NCBI GenBank assembly: GCA_017608525.1 | Contig: JAFCFS010000001.1 | Span: forward strand, 1,934-65,933 | Length of the DNA stretch: 64,000 nucleotides | Source of the DNA: Candidatus Woesearchaeota archaeon | GTDB lineage: Archaea > Nanobdellota > Nanobdellia > SCGC-AAA011-G17 > GW2011-AR17 | Reading direction: 5' to 3' | Shown: piece after piece, positions 37,374-56,767 of the stretch | Layout: each line of letters begins with the position of its first letter | Numbering within the stretch: the stretch's first letter is position 1 | Notes under the pieces: generated by a model | Database searches by the model: none | The model's input: only the letters and a program-made list of their open reading frames with translations | What the model was told of the DNA's origin: nothing | Position numbers and translations under genes: made by a program

Positions 37374-37389
37374 AAATCTTCTTAAAAAT

Positions 37390-37472
37390 GGGCCTATGAT
37401 GTAACGGATAGCATGCACGGCTTCGGATGCAGAAGAAACCGTGTCGTGGAGGTTCGAATCCTCCTAGGCCCA
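37390..37472 (+). tRNA. tRNA-Arg(TCG) with 11-nt intron at canonical position 37/38
   Basis: Acceptor GGGCCTA/TAGGCCC, D-arm ATGT-AACGGATA-GCAT, anticodon stem CACGG, loop CTTCGG^[ATGCAGAAGAA]^A, CCGTG, T-arm GGAGG-TTCGAAT-CCTCC. Loop residues CTTC pair with intron GAAG, giving a bulge-helix-bulge-like splice motif. Confidence 0.65.
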
Positions 37473-37510
37473 TCAAAAACATTTTAAATTTCTAAAATTA
37501 TATTTTTATT

Positions 37511-50321: not shown

Positions 50322-50452
50322 GGGCCCGTAGCTTAGCCTGGTGGAGCATCGGTCTTATATGGCACCATCGGCAACAGCCTAAGAGAGCCGAGGGTCAAGG
50401 GAAGACTCCAGCTCTTGCTGAAGTCTCTTGAATTCAAATCCCTTCGGGCCCA
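50322..50452 (+). tRNA. candidate tRNA-Ile(TAT) carrying two introns (26-nt at 37/38 and ~31-nt in the T-arm at 53/54)
   Basis: Exons assemble to a 74-nt cloverleaf: GGGCCCG-TA-GCTT-AGCCTGGTG-GAGC-A-TCGGT-CTTATA[intron]A-GCCGA-GGGTC-AAGGG[intron]TTCAAAT-CCCTT-CGGGCCC-A. Loop CTTA pairs with intron TAAG (BHB-like). The T-arm intron carries its own hairpin (GACTCCAGC/GCTGAAGTC). Confidence 0.5.
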
Positions 50453-51862
50453 CTATTTTTTAATTTTTTCAACATATTCTTCTATCTTCAACAATTTTGG
50501 TTTTTTGGCCTTCGCTCTTATAAATAAAATTACTAAGAAAACAACTAGTAGGATAATTACCACTACAATTGTTCTTAATATTTTTTTCTTTTTTTCCTCT
50601 CTTAATTCTTCTTTTGGTGTTTTGGTTTCTGTATAATTCACAATAACTACCTCCTTTTCCTTAGAAATATTTAATTCAACCAATTCTGTTTTATTTTTAA
50701 CTTCTTCTGCAACGTTAGTGAAAAGAAAAGACATTGGAAATTCTATCCTTCCTTCTTTACTGGAAACAATCAGATTTCCATAGTATAGTTTTCCAGGAAT
50801 TGCGTTCTTATCTTCGTTAACTACAATATTGAGGCTAGTTGTTTCGTAAGGTTGCAGTACATTGATTGTTTTTTTGTCTATTTTTACAATTTCATTAAGA
50901 TTACCATCTAACTTAATAGAAATCTGGTTTATTGGGTATTCTCCATCGTTTTTGAATTTAATTTCGCCAATGAAAATTTTGTTAACTGGAGCTCTTTTAC
51001 TTAATGATTTATTTTTCATCAAAAATTTAAGTTTAAATTCTTTCTCAACTATTTCGCAAGGTCCACAAACTCCACCACAATCAACACCCTCTTCACCCTC
51101 ATCCTTTACACCATTATTACAACAATCGTCAATTGCTTCGCATGGTCCACCACAATCAACACCTCTCTCACCTTGGTTTTTAATTCCATCGTTGCATGTT
51201 GGAGCTTCTTTCTCCTCTTTTTTAATGATTACTGGAATTTCGTAAAATTTGTTTCCGTAATTTAAAATGACACTCGTTTCTTTTACAGTTATATTTTTTA
51301 CATCAACTGAGAAATATACATTTAGTGAAGAAAGTGGTTCTATTATTAAACTCTCTCTAAATGGCCTAATTGCATCCTCGTTTGATTTTGGTTTTACTTC
51401 GGTTTTGTTGAGGCCCTTATTGCTTAATTTTATGGCGAAAGTTTTCGTGTCTTCCGTTACAAATACAATTGAAGGTTTTATACACAAGTATGGTTCCTCA
51501 TTTTTTATTGTAAAATTTTTATAAAAAGAAAATGTCTTTAGCGTTGCATTTATTCTTTTTTTATAAGAGATCACAATACTACAATCGCTCTCCTCAAGCT
51601 CTGGTAATTCAAAAGATAAAAAATACGTGTTATTCTTTAGATGAAAAATTAAAAGACCAATATCTATTTTTGTTTCGTTACAAATCAATTTTACATTCTC
51701 TGGTGTAAGTAAAATTTCTGAATAAACCCAAAATTGAACACTTTCGTATTCTGAATAAGTATCTCTTTCTATTTTAATTGTGTCTTCACCATAAACGAAA
51801 GGAAAGAGAAAAACAAACAACAAAAATATACAAAATAATTTACTTTCTTTGAAAAATTTCAT
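50453..51862 (-). CDS. secreted/surface protein with Cys-rich modules and C-terminal TM anchor
   Basis: N-terminal signal (LFCIFLLFVFLFPFVYG), a C-terminal TM (ILRTIVVVIILLVVFLVILFI), and an internal module PTCNDGIKNQGERGVDCGGPCEAIDDCCNNGVKDEGEEGVDCGGVCGPCE shared with the next gene. Confidence 0.5.
   Translation of the reverse strand: MKFFKESKLFCIFLLFVFLFPFVYGEDTIKIERDTYSEYESVQFWVYSEILLTPENVKLICNETKIDIGLLIFHLKNNTYFLSFELPELEESDCSIVISYKKRINATLKTFSFYKNFTIKNEEPYLCIKPSIVFVTEDTKTFAIKLSNKGLNKTEVKPKSNEDAIRPFRESLIIEPLSSLNVYFSVDVKNITVKETSVILNYGNKFYEIPVIIKKEEKEAPTCNDGIKNQGERGVDCGGPCEAIDDCCNNGVKDEGEEGVDCGGVCGPCEIVEKEFKLKFLMKNKSLSKRAPVNKIFIGEIKFKNDGEYPINQISIKLDGNLNEIVKIDKKTINVLQPYETTSLNIVVNEDKNAIPGKLYYGNLIVSSKEGRIEFPMSFLFTNVAEEVKNKTELVELNISKEKEVVIVNYTETKTPKEELREEKKKKILRTIVVVIILLVVFLVILFIRAKAKKPKLLKIEEYVEKIKK
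51053..51204. repeat. 152-bp direct repeat copy A (97% identical to 52393-52544)
   Basis: Aligned by eye, with 4 mismatches. Encodes the shared 50-aa Cys-rich module in the two adjacent paralogous surface-protein genes. Confidence 0.85.
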
Positions 51863-53679
51863 ATTCTAAATTTATATTCTGGTTTTTCTGGCAGTGATTC
51901 GAATATTCCTTTTGGTCCTCCTTCTTCTTTCTTACCTTTTTTTGGAGGTGTTAAGAATTTTTTATAGAATATGAAGCCAATTATTAGGAGCAAAACAATC
52001 ACAACTCCTATAATTGCCCAATAGTTAATTCCACCCTCCTCCTCGACTTCAGGAGGTGTAGGTGCGGGAGTTTCAGGAGCCTCTCTAGCTCTTTTTTCTT
52101 CCTCACAATCTTCAGGACATGTATCTTCATCTTCCGTATCATCGCAAACACCATCTCCACAATAACAATCTGCTGGACAATTTTCGCTATTCTCACCTTC
52201 ATCAACTTCGCACACATCATTTTCTAAGCATACACATGGATTAACACATGGTCCACCACAATCAACACCTTCTTCAAATCCGTTTTGAATTCCGTCATGG
52301 CATGTGTCCTCACAATCGCTCGGGCAATTTATTACATTTTCACCTGCATCAATATCGCACTCCCCATCATTATCACAAACTTCCATTTCCTCTTCGCAAG
52401 GTCCACAAACTCCACCGCAATCAACACCCTCTTCACCCTCATCCTTTACACCATTATTACAACAATCGTCAATTGCTTCGCATGGTCCACCACAATCAAT
52501 TCCTCTTTCACCTTGGTTTTTAATTCCATCGTTGCATGTTGGAGTATGCGGAACCTCTATTGTTGTGATTAATGCATCTGGAAATGCAGCGTACAAAACA
52601 AGAGCAGTACTTTTAACATCTTCACCCCAGCTACCATCAGCTCTTTGGTGATTTTCTAACCATGTTATTCCATTTGTAACTTCATCAGCATAGTCTGGAT
52701 TTTCTTTTAATGCAAGAATAGCAAATGCTGTATCTAAAGGATTTTTATTCCAGCTTCCATCAGGTTTTTGCAACTTTTTTAAATTTTTTAAATATTCCTC
52801 ATCGTTTGTTAAAAGGTATAAAATAGAGTTATCCAAAACTCTACTTTCATCATAGTTTTCTTTGAGATAGAGGTTTACATTAGATTCACTGTTTAATTCT
52901 TTAAGAGCCCATCCACCATATAAACTTGCTTCAACATTGCAAGACTTACGAAATCTCATACCAAAACAACCGTTGTTTATTCTTAATATTGCAGAAGTTC
53001 CCCTCACGCTTTCTAAAAGGTAATAAGTATTGCCTTCCTTGTACAATAAGGTTATTATCGCATCAGGTAAATCGCAGTCAATTTCTATTACTAAAGAAGG
53101 ATTTCTATCAACAAGATTCGTTCTTTGTAAATGTCTATTCAAATTCAGGAATGTTGTGTTCCCGTGATCTGGAAAATAACCCTTATTCACTTTTATCTCC
53201 ACATCTCTTATTATCTCATTTAATGTATAAGAAATCGTACATTTTCCCTCACCAGAGGTTGAAATCTGCAATAACCAATCACCAACCTTTAATCCTGCAG
53301 ACTGGGACTGAACCAACCAATTTTCGATTTCGCTTATGTTTTCATAACCCATCAAATTAAGTGCAATTGCTACCATTGCTGTATCTTTCACATTACATCG
53401 CTGAGGCCAACAATTAAGCTTTTCATTCCTTTTGGACATCAACCAATCGTAAATATCTCCTGCTGTAACTGTGTCGCCGTATGTATTAAATGTTAATAAA
53501 GCTAAAGCGGTGTCAAAAACATTGCCGTATGCTTTTTCACTATCATAGGTTTTAACTAACCAGTCATATGCTCTTTGTTCACTAAAATTCGCAACTGCAT
53601 GAACACTAGGAATTAACAGGAACGAAACAAGAAATACAAAAAATAGAACCTTTTCTCTCATAAAAATTCCTAATATCAA
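51859..53679 (-). CDS. secreted/surface protein with prenyltransferase/squalene-oxidase-like alpha/alpha-toroid repeats, Cys-rich repeat modules and C-terminal TM anchor
   Basis: Signal peptide; repeats KPDGSWNKNPLDTAFAILAL and RADGSWGEDVKSTALVLYAA (QxxDGSWG-type); tandem Cys-rich modules (CNDGIQNGFEEGVDCGGPC, CGDGVCDDTEDEDTCPEDC); a Pro/Glu linker; C-terminal TM YWAIIGVVIVLLLIIGFIFY. Confidence 0.5.
   Translation of the reverse strand: MILGIFMREKVLFFVFLVSFLLIPSVHAVANFSEQRAYDWLVKTYDSEKAYGNVFDTALALLTFNTYGDTVTAGDIYDWLMSKRNEKLNCWPQRCNVKDTAMVAIALNLMGYENISEIENWLVQSQSAGLKVGDWLLQISTSGEGKCTISYTLNEIIRDVEIKVNKGYFPDHGNTTFLNLNRHLQRTNLVDRNPSLVIEIDCDLPDAIITLLYKEGNTYYLLESVRGTSAILRINNGCFGMRFRKSCNVEASLYGGWALKELNSESNVNLYLKENYDESRVLDNSILYLLTNDEEYLKNLKKLQKPDGSWNKNPLDTAFAILALKENPDYADEVTNGITWLENHQRADGSWGEDVKSTALVLYAAFPDALITTIEVPHTPTCNDGIKNQGERGIDCGGPCEAIDDCCNNGVKDEGEEGVDCGGVCGPCEEEMEVCDNDGECDIDAGENVINCPSDCEDTCHDGIQNGFEEGVDCGGPCVNPCVCLENDVCEVDEGENSENCPADCYCGDGVCDDTEDEDTCPEDCEEEKRAREAPETPAPTPPEVEEEGGINYWAIIGVVIVLLLIIGFIFYKKFLTPPKKGKKEEGGPKGIFESLPEKPEYKFRI
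52393..52544. repeat. 152-bp direct repeat copy B
   Basis: See copy A; same reading frame on the minus strand. Confidence 0.85.
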
Positions 53680-53713
53680 TTACTTTAAAAACTTTTCTGT
53701 ATTAAAAATTTAC

Positions 53714-54322
53714 ATGAAAATTTCAATACCAAATGTGAAAGATTTAAAGTTTTTGGCCAAAGGAAAAAGGGCTGTTGTTTATAAAGGATTTCTAAATGGG
53801 ATTCCTGTTGTAGTTAAAAAAGAAAAACCTGATATAAAGGCAAAAGGAAGAATTAAAAATGAAGCAAGATGGCTCAAAATTCTCAACAAATACCAAATTG
53901 GTCCAAGATTGTATTTTTCTGGTAAGGATTATGTTGTTTGTCAATTTATAGAAGGTGATACAATATTAAGATGGATACCCAAAAGCAAAAAATCAGAAAT
54001 CAAAAAAATCATAATAGAGGTTTTGGAGCAATGCAGGATACTAGATCAGCTTGGTATTAATAAAAAAGAACTTCACAGGCCATTAAAGCACATAATTATA
54101 AAAAAACATCCAGTAATGATAGATTTTGAAAGAACATACAGAACAAAGAGGCCAAAAAATGTTACACAATTCTGTCAATTCATTTTTTCTATTTCAAACA
54201 TACTAAAGGAAAAGGGAATCAAAATAGATAAAGAAAAATTAAAAAAATTATTGATTAATTATAAAAAAAGAATGCGTGAAAAAGACTTCATTAAAATAAT
54301 TTCTTTCTTTAAAAAAATTTGA
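53714..54322 (+). CDS. Bud32/RIO-like small protein-kinase-fold protein, probable pseudokinase
   Basis: Gly-rich loop AKGKRAVVYKG, VVVKK lysine, EARWLKIL, FIEGDTI. The catalytic-loop position reads LHRPLKHIII (no Asp where HGDL is expected) and IDFERT replaces IDFG. Confidence 0.45.
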   Translation: MKISIPNVKDLKFLAKGKRAVVYKGFLNGIPVVVKKEKPDIKAKGRIKNEARWLKILNKYQIGPRLYFSGKDYVVCQFIEGDTILRWIPKSKKSEIKKIIIEVLEQCRILDQLGINKKELHRPLKHIIIKKHPVMIDFERTYRTKRPKNVTQFCQFIFSISNILKEKGIKIDKEKLKKLLINYKKRMREKDFIKIISFFKKI

Positions 54323-54360: not shown

Positions 54361-55440
54361 TTGATGAAAATTAGGAATCTACTTTTGATTATATTTGTAA
54401 TTTTCCTTTTTACTCTTGCATATGCACAAGAAAAAAAATATGTAGTTATAGAGTTCGAAAGCTTTGGAGGCAATAAGACGGTAACTATCAATTTAAAAGA
54501 AATATTTGGGAAGAGTTACTATTTTGTTCATAGCGAAACTGAGCATGTCGACATTAAAATCAATATTGGGGAGGGTACTGCAGTATTAAAGGCGAAAGAT
54601 CCTAGATGGAAAGGAAAAGAAAGGGTAGTTTTTGCAATAAATAAAAAGGCCCTCGAAGAGGCTCTTTTAATAGAGGGCCTAAAAAAACAACCTGAAAAGA
54701 AAGAAAAGAAGGTTGGGAAAGAAGAGGTTCCAAAGTTAAAAATCGATGTTGAAGATGTAATCCATGCACTGGAGCCGATCCTAAAAAAAAGCTTTATTGG
54801 GATACTGCATGACATACCGCTGGTTGATGCAAAAATATATGCTTATAAAACAAACGATTCATTAATTCTTGACCTAAACAGAGAAATAATCATGAATATA
54901 AGCTTTGCACAATTTGGTTACAAACCGACTATTAAATTAAACATAACTTTGAATAAAACGGGCTTGGCCCCCCCCAAATACGAGCCAAAAGATACTGAAA
55001 ATTATTATCTTGCAGTTGTTATCTTCCTTACAATTACAGTAATTGGATTTTATTTAAAATTTGGAGAAAATCTATTCCCAAAATTCAAAAGGAGAAAAAA
55101 AGAACTCAAGGAAGAGAAGTTGTTGGAGCATATTAAAATTCAGAAAGAGAATATAATCGGAAAGATAAAAGCTTTGAAAGGTGAAAAAAATATTGAAAGG
55201 GCATATAAAAGTGCTGTTAAATCAATGAACGATTTCTTAATAGAGTTTTTAAAGCTGAAAGATTTGACGAACAAAGCCGTAATTTCAACAATGAAAAAGA
55301 AAAAGTATCCGCAACAATTAATAGATGAGGTTAGGTCATATTTAAGAAAGTCCCAAAAGCTTTATAGCCCTGAAGGTGTAAATAAAAAAGATCTAGACGA
55401 ACTATTGGAAAAAATAGAAGACATAGTTAAAAAAATCTAA
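54361..55440 (+). CDS. membrane protein with N-terminal signal/TM, internal TM and coiled-coil C-terminus; unknown function
   Basis: Hydrophobic N-terminus (LLLIIFVIFLFTLAYA), a mid TM (YYLAVVIFLTITVIGFYL), and a Lys/Glu-rich helical tail. Confidence 0.4.
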   Translation: MMKIRNLLLIIFVIFLFTLAYAQEKKYVVIEFESFGGNKTVTINLKEIFGKSYYFVHSETEHVDIKINIGEGTAVLKAKDPRWKGKERVVFAINKKALEEALLIEGLKKQPEKKEKKVGKEEVPKLKIDVEDVIHALEPILKKSFIGILHDIPLVDAKIYAYKTNDSLILDLNREIIMNISFAQFGYKPTIKLNITLNKTGLAPPKYEPKDTENYYLAVVIFLTITVIGFYLKFGENLFPKFKRRKKELKEEKLLEHIKIQKENIIGKIKALKGEKNIERAYKSAVKSMNDFLIEFLKLKDLTNKAVISTMKKKKYPQQLIDEVRSYLRKSQKLYSPEGVNKKDLDELLEKIEDIVKKI

Positions 55441-55441
55441 A

Positions 55442-56767
55442 ATGAGATTAATTATCTTTTTGTTTTTGCTATTTATTGATCTTTGTCAAAGTGCAAAAGC
55501 GGAAACAATTTTAATTTTTGGAAGAGAATACTCAATTGTTGTTCTTGTACCATTCATCCTAATTATTTTATCTTTTGCATTTCTTACTTTTATCCAATTG
55601 AAAAGAAAAAAGGAAAAAATTATTGAAATTCTGAAAAGTTTTCTGGCTTTATTCATTGCTATTCATGGAGTAGTTGAAAAACTTGGTATTAGGAAGATCT
55701 TTGAATATTTGAAAGAAAAATTGCCAAGAAAGGAGAAAAAAATCATTGTTGAAGAAAAACCGAAAAAAGTTATAGATTATGAAAAAGAGGTGGGAAATAT
55801 TAGAAAAGGGATTAAAAGACATAGCCCAATGGTTAGCTTCGAAAAAATTGCAAAACTTTCAAGAGATTTCTTCAAGGAATATTTAGGAATAGAATACGAA
55901 GCTACTTATGAAGAACTTGAAGAAAAATTGCGTGAAAGAAATAAAAAAATGGCTGATTTTGTTAGAGATATTTCATTCATAAAATACAAAGGAAAAAATA
56001 TCACGAGGGGGGATGTAAGAAAACTACTAAACGATTTTGAGAAATTTGTTACAAAAAAAAGAAAGAAAAAAATTGGTGTTACAAAGAAAGGAATATTACA
56101 AAGAATAATAGAGGAGGATAAAAAAATACTCCTAGCAATAAAAGATTTAATAGAGGGTGCAAAGGAGAAAGATAAACTTAATAGGCTAAACAAACTTCTC
56201 ATTGAGGAAAGAATAATACTAGCGAGAGATTTCAGGAAAGTTAAAAGTGCCTATAGAAAAATTCTAAGATTGTACTCCAGATTAAATGAAGAAGAGAAGA
56301 AGAAAATCTTCCCAAAGATAATAGAATTTTACAAATTTATAAGTGTTCATCCAATGATTACAGAAAAGCAGAGAAAGGATTTAGAAGTTTTCATGAAAAA
56401 AATAAGCAAAGAGGGAAACTTTAGTTTTCTCTCAAAAATTAAGGAAGCTGTTCTTAATGAAGAGAAAATTATAAGCGAGAAAGTTATGGAAAGAATAGAT
56501 AAACTTCATGAAGAAGAAAGAAAGCTCTTGGAAAAAATATCCGAGCTGTCAAAAAAAGAAGGTGCAAGAATTGAACTTTCTGAAAAATTGGAAAAAGAAA
56601 TTGAAAAATTAATAGAACTTGGAAAAAAGGCATTGGAGGAAGGAAAGAAAGAGAAAGCAGAAATACATTATAAAAAAATCAAAGAGCTATATTACAAACT
56701 CAAGAAAGAAAGCAGGGAGAAGATAAAAGATAAAATAAATAGATTTGTTGAATTATTTTCTAAATAG
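55442..56767 (+). CDS. membrane-anchored coiled-coil protein, unknown function
   Basis: Signal-like N-terminus, a TM (VVLVPFILIILSFAFLTFI), then about 370 aa of heptad-like Lys/Glu-rich sequence. Starts 2 nt after the previous gene. Confidence 0.4.
   Translation: MRLIIFLFLLFIDLCQSAKAETILIFGREYSIVVLVPFILIILSFAFLTFIQLKRKKEKIIEILKSFLALFIAIHGVVEKLGIRKIFEYLKEKLPRKEKKIIVEEKPKKVIDYEKEVGNIRKGIKRHSPMVSFEKIAKLSRDFFKEYLGIEYEATYEELEEKLRERNKKMADFVRDISFIKYKGKNITRGDVRKLLNDFEKFVTKKRKKKIGVTKKGILQRIIEEDKKILLAIKDLIEGAKEKDKLNRLNKLLIEERIILARDFRKVKSAYRKILRLYSRLNEEEKKKIFPKIIEFYKFISVHPMITEKQRKDLEVFMKKISKEGNFSFLSKIKEAVLNEEKIISEKVMERIDKLHEEERKLLEKISELSKKEGARIELSEKLEKEIEKLIELGKKALEEGKKEKAEIHYKKIKELYYKLKKESREKIKDKINRFVELFSK

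Follow-up and report, generated by a model that had tools for sequence, protein, structure and literature searches.

Several described classes of protein are built around an alpha/alpha toroid. Class II terpene cyclases and the C-terminal domain of SHC (8zg0, 8paj, 6ij1, 6sbb/MstE, 1gsz; PF13243) combine an (alpha/alpha)6 toroid and QW repeats with a DxDD motif, and they are located at the cytoplasmic face or monotopically. In alpha-2-macroglobulin, complement C3, TEP1 and CD109 an alpha/alpha toroid, the TED, carries a CGEQ thioester and belongs to a scaffold of MG and CUB domains with a bait region. In transcobalamin, intrinsic factor and haptocorrin a beta domain is appended to the C-terminal side of the barrel, and the ligand is held between the two. 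Glycoside hydrolases with an (alpha/alpha)6 barrel (GH8, GH76, GH105, MmpH) have a conserved pair of catalytic acid/base residues in their central cavity. Archaea of the DPANN group depend on other cells, and here we discuss a toroid that one of them probably displays on its surface. The stretch of DNA analysed, called the window below, comprises 64,000 nucleotides of a Candidatus Woesearchaeota archaeon (contig JAFCFS010000001.1), and positions are counted from its first letter. Two adjacent genes on its minus strand are at issue. The upstream one encodes the toroid protein, which we call the large protein, and the downstream one encodes a protein with three predicted beta domains, the small protein. 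Literature searches on surface proteins and toroid-type proteins of Woesearchaeota and DPANN archaea gave no description of this family.

We will argue that the two genes form a conserved surface operon, that a Cys-rich module was copied one way between them, and that the toroid is a non-catalytic binding module which cooperates with an immunoglobulin (Ig)-domain protein. We put the probability of this reading as a whole at about 0.65.

Two gene families in one putative operon

Both minus-strand open reading frames (ORFs) are where the first-pass annotation of this DNA had placed them. The large gene (51859..53661) encodes 600 aa if translation begins at the ATG at 53661; the listed ORF extends further, to a TTG at 53679 (606 aa). 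The ATG is most likely the true start, because a TATA-like element, TTTTTAAAG, lies about 25 nt upstream of it (at about 53682-53691) and because orthologs begin at the equivalent Met. The database copy of the large protein (P0001) likewise has 600 aa. The small gene (50453..51862; 469 aa in the ORF list) overlaps the large one by four nucleotides in a stop/start ATGA (51859..51862, minus strand). The same 4-nt overlap is found in a related locus, L001, and it suggests translational coupling within one operon.

A homolog search with the large protein gave more than 800 full-length proteins of 560-750 aa and 30-50% identity. Those that are named come from metagenome-assembled genomes of Woesearchaeota, Nanoarchaeota or Nanoarchaeia, with annotations that include hypothetical. 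When all fetched loci were searched with hidden Markov models (HMMs), a gene of the small family was found immediately downstream of the large gene in 8 of 12 informative distinct loci (the window together with its strain-level counterpart L085, and L001, L002, L004, L011, L013, L083 and L086). Adjacency is thus kept at about 30-50% identity between the large proteins of these relatives and that of the window. Judged by synteny and profiles, the pair would be a conserved two-gene operon of Woesearchaeota-type DPANN archaea, composed of two non-homologous families.

The first-pass annotation had called the two genes paralogs, and this has to be abandoned: BLASTP similarity between their products covers only a shared Cys-rich module (49 of 50 residues, not all 50 as had been said) and weaker matches to a third module, and the two proteins belong to separate families. 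The small protein was also considered as an orphan. A word-indexed homolog search with the small-family profile gave only three proteins, and the matches of the small protein in such a search were to the module alone. Synteny and profile searches rule this out. Its orthologs directly after the large ortholog in L001 and L002 (436-439 aa) are 25% identical to it on either side of the module (E 2e-23 and 3e-17), and the syntenic orthologs in general are 23-30% identical. An exhaustive profile search of representative sequences brought the family to light: E<=1e-3 was reached by 1,025 representative clusters and E<=1e-10 by 651, and almost all have 390-460 aa and match over their full length.

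Each of the two proteins has one N-terminal and one C-terminal hydrophobic segment by hydropathy, and AlphaFold2 (AF2) models both segments as helices. The signal-peptide-like N-terminus and C-terminal transmembrane (TM) segment claimed earlier for both proteins are thereby borne out, and their hallmarks support a type I surface location. Behind its signal peptide the small protein has beta domains at about aa 23-115, 141-214 and 287-382, with the module pair between the second and the third. An acidic stalk, the TM segment (aa 424-455) and a short basic tail complete it. The all-beta nature of the three domains comes from the AF2 secondary structure at low confidence: the model was built on a three-sequence alignment and is poor, with a predicted local distance difference test score (pLDDT) of 52.7, and its Foldseek matches to ASH and PapD-like folds count as generic evidence of an Ig-like fold only. 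Ig-like profile matches within the family stay below curated thresholds (HYDIN_VesB Ig in 4 of 80 members, CARDB in 3 of 80, none in the protein of the window), and the family matches an S-layer protein, 4uid, with E 5e-4. An assignment of the small protein to the generic Ig-like beta-sandwich class is accordingly weak. Like the Ig-like, CARDB and ASH (HYDIN-type) domains of S-layer and other surface proteins, the family is all-beta, with weak matches to them, but it has motifs of its own, YFxYF[ND]LP and, near the membrane, NY[ST].

A few other features of the small family may be mentioned. In about 37 of 148 representatives (P0232, P0234, P0235 and P0242 among them) the stretch that leads from the last beta domain to the TM segment holds a 6-Cys module of another kind, C..L.G..C....C.G......G.CC.G.C, and 68 of the 148 contain no Cys at all. 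Many members end in a short basic tail of the type ...EY[VIL]xx[LI]KK. N-x-S/T sequons number ten in the ectodomain of the small protein and three in that of the large protein, which is the larger of the two. Next to the membrane on its outer side, all six syntenic orthologs have the Asn of an N-[YL]-[ST] sequon (VNYTE in the window), an invariance that suggests N-glycosylation.

The large protein and its fold relatives

From N- to C-terminus the large protein consists of a signal peptide, a toroid with a beta insert, a Cys-rich stalk, a Pro/Glu linker, a TM segment and a cytoplasmic tail. The predicted signal peptide (MREKVLFFVFLVSFLLIPSVHA; 53596..53661, minus strand, as are all parts that follow) is hydrophobic at aa 2-27 and helical at aa 2-19 in the AF2 model, and its position is kept in orthologs. 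Helices 1-5 form the N-terminal half of the toroid (aa 28-118; 53308..53580), including a conserved C84-x4-C89 loop. A beta-sandwich insert follows (aa 121-232; 52966..53301), recognized by AF2 strands at aa 128-229 and by family conservation. Helices 6-12 then form the C-terminal half (aa 243-359; 52585..52935), with the QW-type repeats LQKPDGSW and HQRADGSWG. The stalk begins with a pair of Cys-rich modules, to which we return below, and its remainder (52102..52392) contains type-B modules (CxxDGxCDxxxGExxxNCPxDC, CGDGVCDD...). Next come a Pro/Glu-rich linker that appears flexible from its sequence and from pLDDT <50 at aa 523-546 (52027..52101), the TM anchor (51952..52023; hydropathy peak at aa 542-573, AF2 helix 547-570) and a cytoplasmic tail of 30 aa (51862-51951). 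The tandem Cys-rich modules and the Pro/Glu-rich region noted earlier are therefore present. The earlier statement that the proteins combine a toroid with such modules is right for the large protein, which has two QxxDGSW repeats and a modelled toroid, and wrong for the small one, which has no toroid.

The AF2 model of the large protein, made from a 63-sequence alignment, has a mean pLDDT of 85 and exceeds 90 for residues 30-360, so that structure prediction upholds the toroid. Its twelve helices (5 + 7) make up the (alpha/alpha)6 toroid, which is interrupted after helix 5 by a beta domain of eight strands (aa 121-232). The Cys-rich modules are modelled at a pLDDT of about 70-93 and the Pro/Glu linker is disordered. 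The most conserved motifs of the family, GxFPxCGxxTF and NGCFG, lie in the beta insert, and eight conserved Cys residues form what appear to be four disulfide pairs. Two further observations concern individual members. The pair C166/C177 is present in 60-61 of the 63 relatives and is His/His in the protein of the window (~53131-53166); joint replacement at the two positions is consistent with a C166/C177 disulfide in the other members. A tail motif, ...[LI][DE]KS[IL]xEA[KR]KL[LI]xKK, occurs in 53 of the 63 family proteins and is missing from that of the window, from its closest relative P0002 and from 8 others. Possibly it interacts with a cytoplasmic partner or is a membrane-binding helix.

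By sequence the toroid leads to the cyclases. Pfam SQHop_cyclase_C (PF13243) matches the large protein with 26.3 bits against a cutoff of 26.1, SHC in the PDB gives 1.6e-8 and a profile search 1.7e-11, with the similarity confined to the QW repeat unit. Structure comparison of the model points the same way. The highest score, 23.4, was for the class II domain of drimenyl-diphosphate synthase (8zg0; 229 residues, 2.8 A, 22% identity), followed by a single-domain cyclase-like protein (8paj, 22.1), a prenylcyclase (6ij1, 21.2), MstE (21.1), the MmpH hydrolase (20.6), GH76 and GH8 (19.3), the TED domains of CD109, TEP1 and C3 (18.0-18.8) and the transcobalamin family (17.3-17.8). Foldseek agrees, with weak E-values.

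What is characteristic of the active members of these classes is not found here. The DxD[DE] motif is absent from the large protein of the window and occurs in 7 of 63 relatives at scattered, non-homologous positions, where it is incidental. A thioester motif, C[GAS]EQ, is present in none of the 63 family members. There is no conserved His among these 63 either, and no prenyltransferase-type Zn2+ site of Asp, Cys and His. The only near-invariant acidic residues are the Asp residues of the QW repeats and D195 in the insert. We therefore place the modelled toroid by fold in the terpene-cyclase/TED class, without the catalytic features of either class II cyclases or thioester proteins.

Further differences set the large protein apart from its relatives. 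It shares the (alpha/alpha)6 toroid and QW repeats of class II terpene cyclases, but it lacks DxDD, is predicted to be secreted and membrane-anchored, and belongs to a family with four conserved, apparent disulfide pairs. A probably disulfide-stapled beta-sandwich of roughly 110 residues separates helices 5 and 6, and the toroid is fused to a Cys-rich stalk and TM anchor. The N-terminal signal-like segment, the single C-terminal TM segment and the conserved Cys pairs point to an extracellular domain rather than to the cytoplasmic-face or monotopic location of the cyclases. With the TED domains it has the alpha/alpha toroid in common, but it has no CGEQ thioester, no MG/CUB scaffold and no bait region, and is much smaller. 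In transcobalamin, intrinsic factor and haptocorrin the beta domain follows the barrel, whereas here it is inserted into it, and there is no sequence similarity to these proteins.

The shared tract and its history

The large and small genes share a tract of 152 nt. In the large gene (52393..52544, minus strand) it encodes two tandem modules of a class that we call type A (PTCNDGIKNQGERGIDCGGPCEAIDDCCNNGVKDEGEEGVDCGGVCGPCE), at the base of the toroid. In the small gene (51053..51204, minus strand) it falls within the hypervariable linker that joins beta domains 2 and 3, with the reading frame kept. The two copies form a direct repeat 1.34 kb apart and match at 148 of 152 nt (97%), and their 90-nt flanks are 37% and 29% identical on the two sides, that is, unrelated. 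The 97% identity, the four mismatches and the diverged flanks described earlier are thus correct. The codon phase is the same in both genes, and the four differences amount to three synonymous changes and one Val/Ile exchange. At positions with the same residue, 46 of 49 codons are identical, against 24.5 +/- 3.3 expected from the codon usage of the genome (P ~ 7e-12); for this reason constraint at the protein level cannot explain the identity of the DNA.

It might be suspected that a collapsed or chimeric repeat in the assembly made the second copy, given that 152 nt is near a typical read length and that the source is a metagenome. The two copies differ at four positions, however, neither ORF is interrupted, and the sequence on either side of the insertion is homologous to that of orthologs. 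Moreover, a second member of the small protein's 90% cluster (P0381) is encoded on a separate JGI contig, L085 (sample 3300033150; 7,176 bp), which has 14 mismatches to the window in 6,772 bp (99.79% identity). This contig has both copies, each with the same four copy-specific bases as in the window. Since L085 was assembled independently, the duplication is real and older than the split of the two strains, and the chance of an artefact is negligible; it is effectively refuted. The evidence supports recent copying at the DNA level. By the Nei-Gojobori method the copies differ by dS 0.104 and dN 0.008 (synonymous and nonsynonymous divergence), and the strains by dS 0.011. The copy event would then be roughly ten times older than the strain split, an estimate from only three synonymous changes, and both copies have been under purifying selection since.

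In which direction was the tract copied? Where the toroid meets the stalk, the consensus of the large family includes the double module, PSCxDGxKNQGERGxDCGGxC...CCxNxxxDxxExGxDCGGxC. The module of the small gene matches the neighbouring large protein at 49 of 50 residues, the best large ortholog at 40 of 50, and the median one at 31 of 50. A DCGG module is found in none of the five syntenic small-gene orthologs and in none of the other 147 of 148 small-family representatives; the protein of the window, P0121, is alone in having it. No segment of the small family varies more than the linker between beta domains 2 and 3. In L011 it is short and acidic, in L001 and L002 it contains a different 6-Cys segment, and in L004 and L013 it is rich in Asn, Thr and Pro; without the module, the linker of the window resembles that of L011. 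Because the double module is ancestral in the large family and confined to this lineage among the 148 small-family representatives, the simplest history is that about 150 nt of the large gene were copied, in frame and in this direction only, into the linker of the small gene, which lies 1.34 kb downstream on that strand. Such a copy could have arisen by template switching or illegitimate recombination between neighbouring direct sequences, and would have entered the length-variable linker before the two 99.79%-identical strains diverged.

The first-pass annotation proposed recent gene conversion or a cassette-like exchange. Recent copying of DNA is indeed indicated by the 46 of 49 codons and by L085, but the reciprocal part does not hold up well. 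Under non-allelic conversion, both genes would have had type-A modules since ancient times and would recently have been homogenised. The tract is sharply bounded and in frame between direct repeats only 1.34 kb apart, as one would then expect, and a short partial similarity just upstream of it (TAATCA..AGAGG) could be an eroded older tract. We nevertheless think this history very unlikely. It would not account for the distribution of the module in the small family, nor for a linker that looks like that of L011 once the module is removed, and the four fixed copy-specific differences common to both strains mean that the copies have not been homogenised since the split. Intragenomic domain duplication and ectopic gene conversion among surface-protein genes are general evolutionary processes. 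The present case resembles ectopic conversion in its short, sharply bounded, near-identical tract between neighbouring genes and in the excess of synonymous identity. It is unlike conversion within gene families in that there is no variation of the tract between strains and in that donor and recipient are otherwise non-homologous, which makes it a one-off domain acquisition into a linker rather than homogenisation of a gene family. As an evolutionary event the copying is ordinary.

Hypervariability at the strain level, for which a comparison of strains had been proposed, does not appear. The surface genes differ no more between the strains than their housekeeping neighbours do: the small gene accounts for 5 differences (2 of them nonsynonymous), the covered 0.9 kb of the large gene for none, orf162 for 3 and ApgM for 6. 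With these 14 differences in total, and hence very low power, the window and L085 show no sign of diversifying selection.

The type-A module itself is a unit of 19 residues with the consensus CxDGIkNQgEeGVDCGGpC, in which E10, D14, C15, G16, G17 and C19 are invariant. All five copies in the window sit in the large and small genes, including a third, diverged one in the stalk of the large protein (TCHDGIQNGFEEGVDCGGPC; about 52247-52305, minus strand) that is 81% identical to the tract over 59 nt. We counted 619 copies in 200 of 385 collected proteins. The Cys-rich region has no Pfam match better than E 2.9, no NCBIfam match and no PDB match at E<=10. Hosts include Woesearchaeota, Altiarchaeota, Methanosarcinales, many bacteria of the candidate phyla radiation (CPR), Myxococcota and Bacteroidota, and the module is mostly in tandem in secreted proteins. 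To judge from the acidic and amide positions that do not vary, it may be a disulfide-bonded spacer that Ca2+ stabilises. As many as 15 copies follow one another in secreted proteins of CPR bacteria, of Sorangium and Polyangiaceae, of Bacteroidota (with T9SS and pappalysin domains), of Altiarchaeota and of Methanosarcinales (L015-L082; P0122-P0230).

Domains have been exchanged at this locus more than once. Three small-family representatives, P0297, P0326 and P0327, contain the toroid of the large family. P0297 and P0327 have it, together with the beta insert, between beta domain 1 and beta domains 2-3. P0326 lacks the N-terminal beta domain 1 and may be a truncated call, since its cluster-mate P0382 is longer (755 aa). 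In the complete Woesearchaeota genome CP066683.1 (L086, 4272-8268) a toroid-bearing protein of 755 aa, QQG39254.1, occupies the position of the small gene after a normal large ortholog of 601 aa; its toroid is an old paralog, being only 29% identical to that of the neighbouring large protein. A toroid and Ig-like domains can thus work as parts of a single polypeptide. A simple reading of these proteins as Rosetta-stone fusions was considered and has to be tempered, since the protein in CP066683.1 has a normal large gene beside it and carries a toroid of old paralogous origin. The stalk is modular as well: the large ortholog of CP066683.1 has Asp-rich modules of the type CxDxxDNDxDxxDC, a different class of Cys module, instead of DCGG.

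A few words on the surroundings of the pair. A small kinase of 202 aa (53714-54322, plus strand) is divergent from the pair and matches PDB entries 7vnx (TkArkI, E 2e-15) and 8yv4. L001, L002, L083 and L086 have a gene of about 195-203 aa at the same divergent position, which is probably housekeeping synteny outside the surface system. It is followed by two adjacent genes (54361-55440 and 55442-56767, plus strand) whose products have N-terminal hydrophobic segments, long Lys/Glu-rich regions that resemble coiled coils, and no Pfam match. On the other side a tRNA (50322-50452, plus strand) abuts the stop codon of the small gene in convergent orientation. It scores 34.6 bits with Rfam, was missed by ARAGORN, and has the anticodon loop CUUAUA (anticodon UAU, Ile). 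Compared with the model, 27 nt are inserted at the anticodon loop and the T-loop is longer by about 31 nt; the gene probably encodes an archaeal tRNA-Ile(UAU) with two introns. Farther away, a tRNA-Pro(CGG) of 86 nt (37389-37474, plus strand) exceeds the standard tRNA length and may have a short intron.

Possible functions of the pair

Several suggestions can be made regarding what the two proteins do. In the reading that we favour, the toroid with its beta insert would be a non-catalytic binding module, held off the membrane on a rigid Cys-rich stalk, and the large and small proteins would cooperate at the cell surface. The acquired module pair would then be a rigid spacer, probably stabilised by Ca2+ and disulfides, that lengthens the ectodomain of the small protein. 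We count for a non-catalytic toroid that it has no invariant acidic residue or His besides the Asp of the QW motif. A role in host attachment or in association with an S-layer, as had been proposed for the pair, would be plausible.

Some points weigh against the favoured reading. The function of the pair is something that we infer. The non-catalytic character of the toroid was derived from motif and conservation scans, not from residue-by-residue superposition, and a glycoside-hydrolase-like activity may still exist. The model of the small protein is poor, and the toroid-bearing members of its family are weaker than a true split/fused Rosetta stone. The HMM searches found no small gene downstream in L003, L006, L010 and L084, which are 4 of the 12 informative loci, so the partnership is not obligatory. 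Scans of metagenomes for the patterns of the pre-insertion allele and of the post-insertion junction gave no match, a result that is uninformative, as the junction of L085 would also be expected there if its sample was included.

If the toroid were an extracellular enzyme, it might modify lipids in the manner of a class II terpene cyclase or, as an (alpha/alpha)6 glycoside hydrolase, act on an envelope polymer of a host or partner cell, and the small protein would be an accessory that binds carbohydrate or envelope. This is unlikely: no DxDD is conserved in the family, the toroid has no Asp, Glu or His that is invariant apart from the structural Asp of the QW repeats, and its sequence similarity to cyclases stops at the repeat unit. 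The combination of a TED-like toroid with Ig/MG-like domains could also bring to mind a minimal, thioester-less system of the alpha-2-macroglobulin/TEP kind that traps or binds proteins such as proteases. We regard it as highly improbable. None of the 63 large-family members has a CGEQ-type thioester, and terpene-cyclase-like domains outscore TED domains in comparison with the toroid. MG (MG2) and A2M matches came from 1 of 80 small-family members each, below curated cutoffs, there is no bait region or CUB domain, and the large protein has no MG domain either.

A third suggestion, distinctly unlikely as we see it, is that the surface-anchored toroid, disabled as a catalyst and with a conserved beta-sandwich lid, is a receptor for isoprenoid lipids or for another hydrophobic nutrient or cofactor from the host or the environment, and that the Ig partner helps to dock on the donor surface. 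A DPANN symbiont recruits lipids of its host selectively by an unknown mechanism (PMC11035636). The idea of lipid scavenging is tempered by the presence of genes of the isoprenoid methylerythritol phosphate (MEP) pathway in many Woesearchaeota (PMC8204110). If this suggestion is correct, the pair would be part of the machinery by which lipid- and cofactor-auxotrophic DPANN archaea acquire such molecules.

Whatever the function is, most lineage-specific families of membrane-bound or extracellular proteins in DPANN archaea have no predicted function (PMC8204110), and for this pair the main ectodomain has a confident structural model together with clearly negative results for the cyclase and thioester catalytic motifs. 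The copied module is a clean and datable case in which one gene acquired a domain from a non-homologous neighbour. Stalks and linkers are modular in general, as the varied classes of Cys-rich module in orthologs and the toroid inserted in some small-family members illustrate, and an uncurated Cys module of 19 residues is common to secreted proteins of DPANN archaea, CPR bacteria, Myxococcota and Bacteroidota. What deserves attention is the underlying surface system, with a variant of a known fold at its centre, rather than the copying of the module. With more than 800 large-family proteins and about 1000 small-family clusters, the pair would represent a widespread surface system of DPANN archaea and a candidate for surface binding or nutrient capture.

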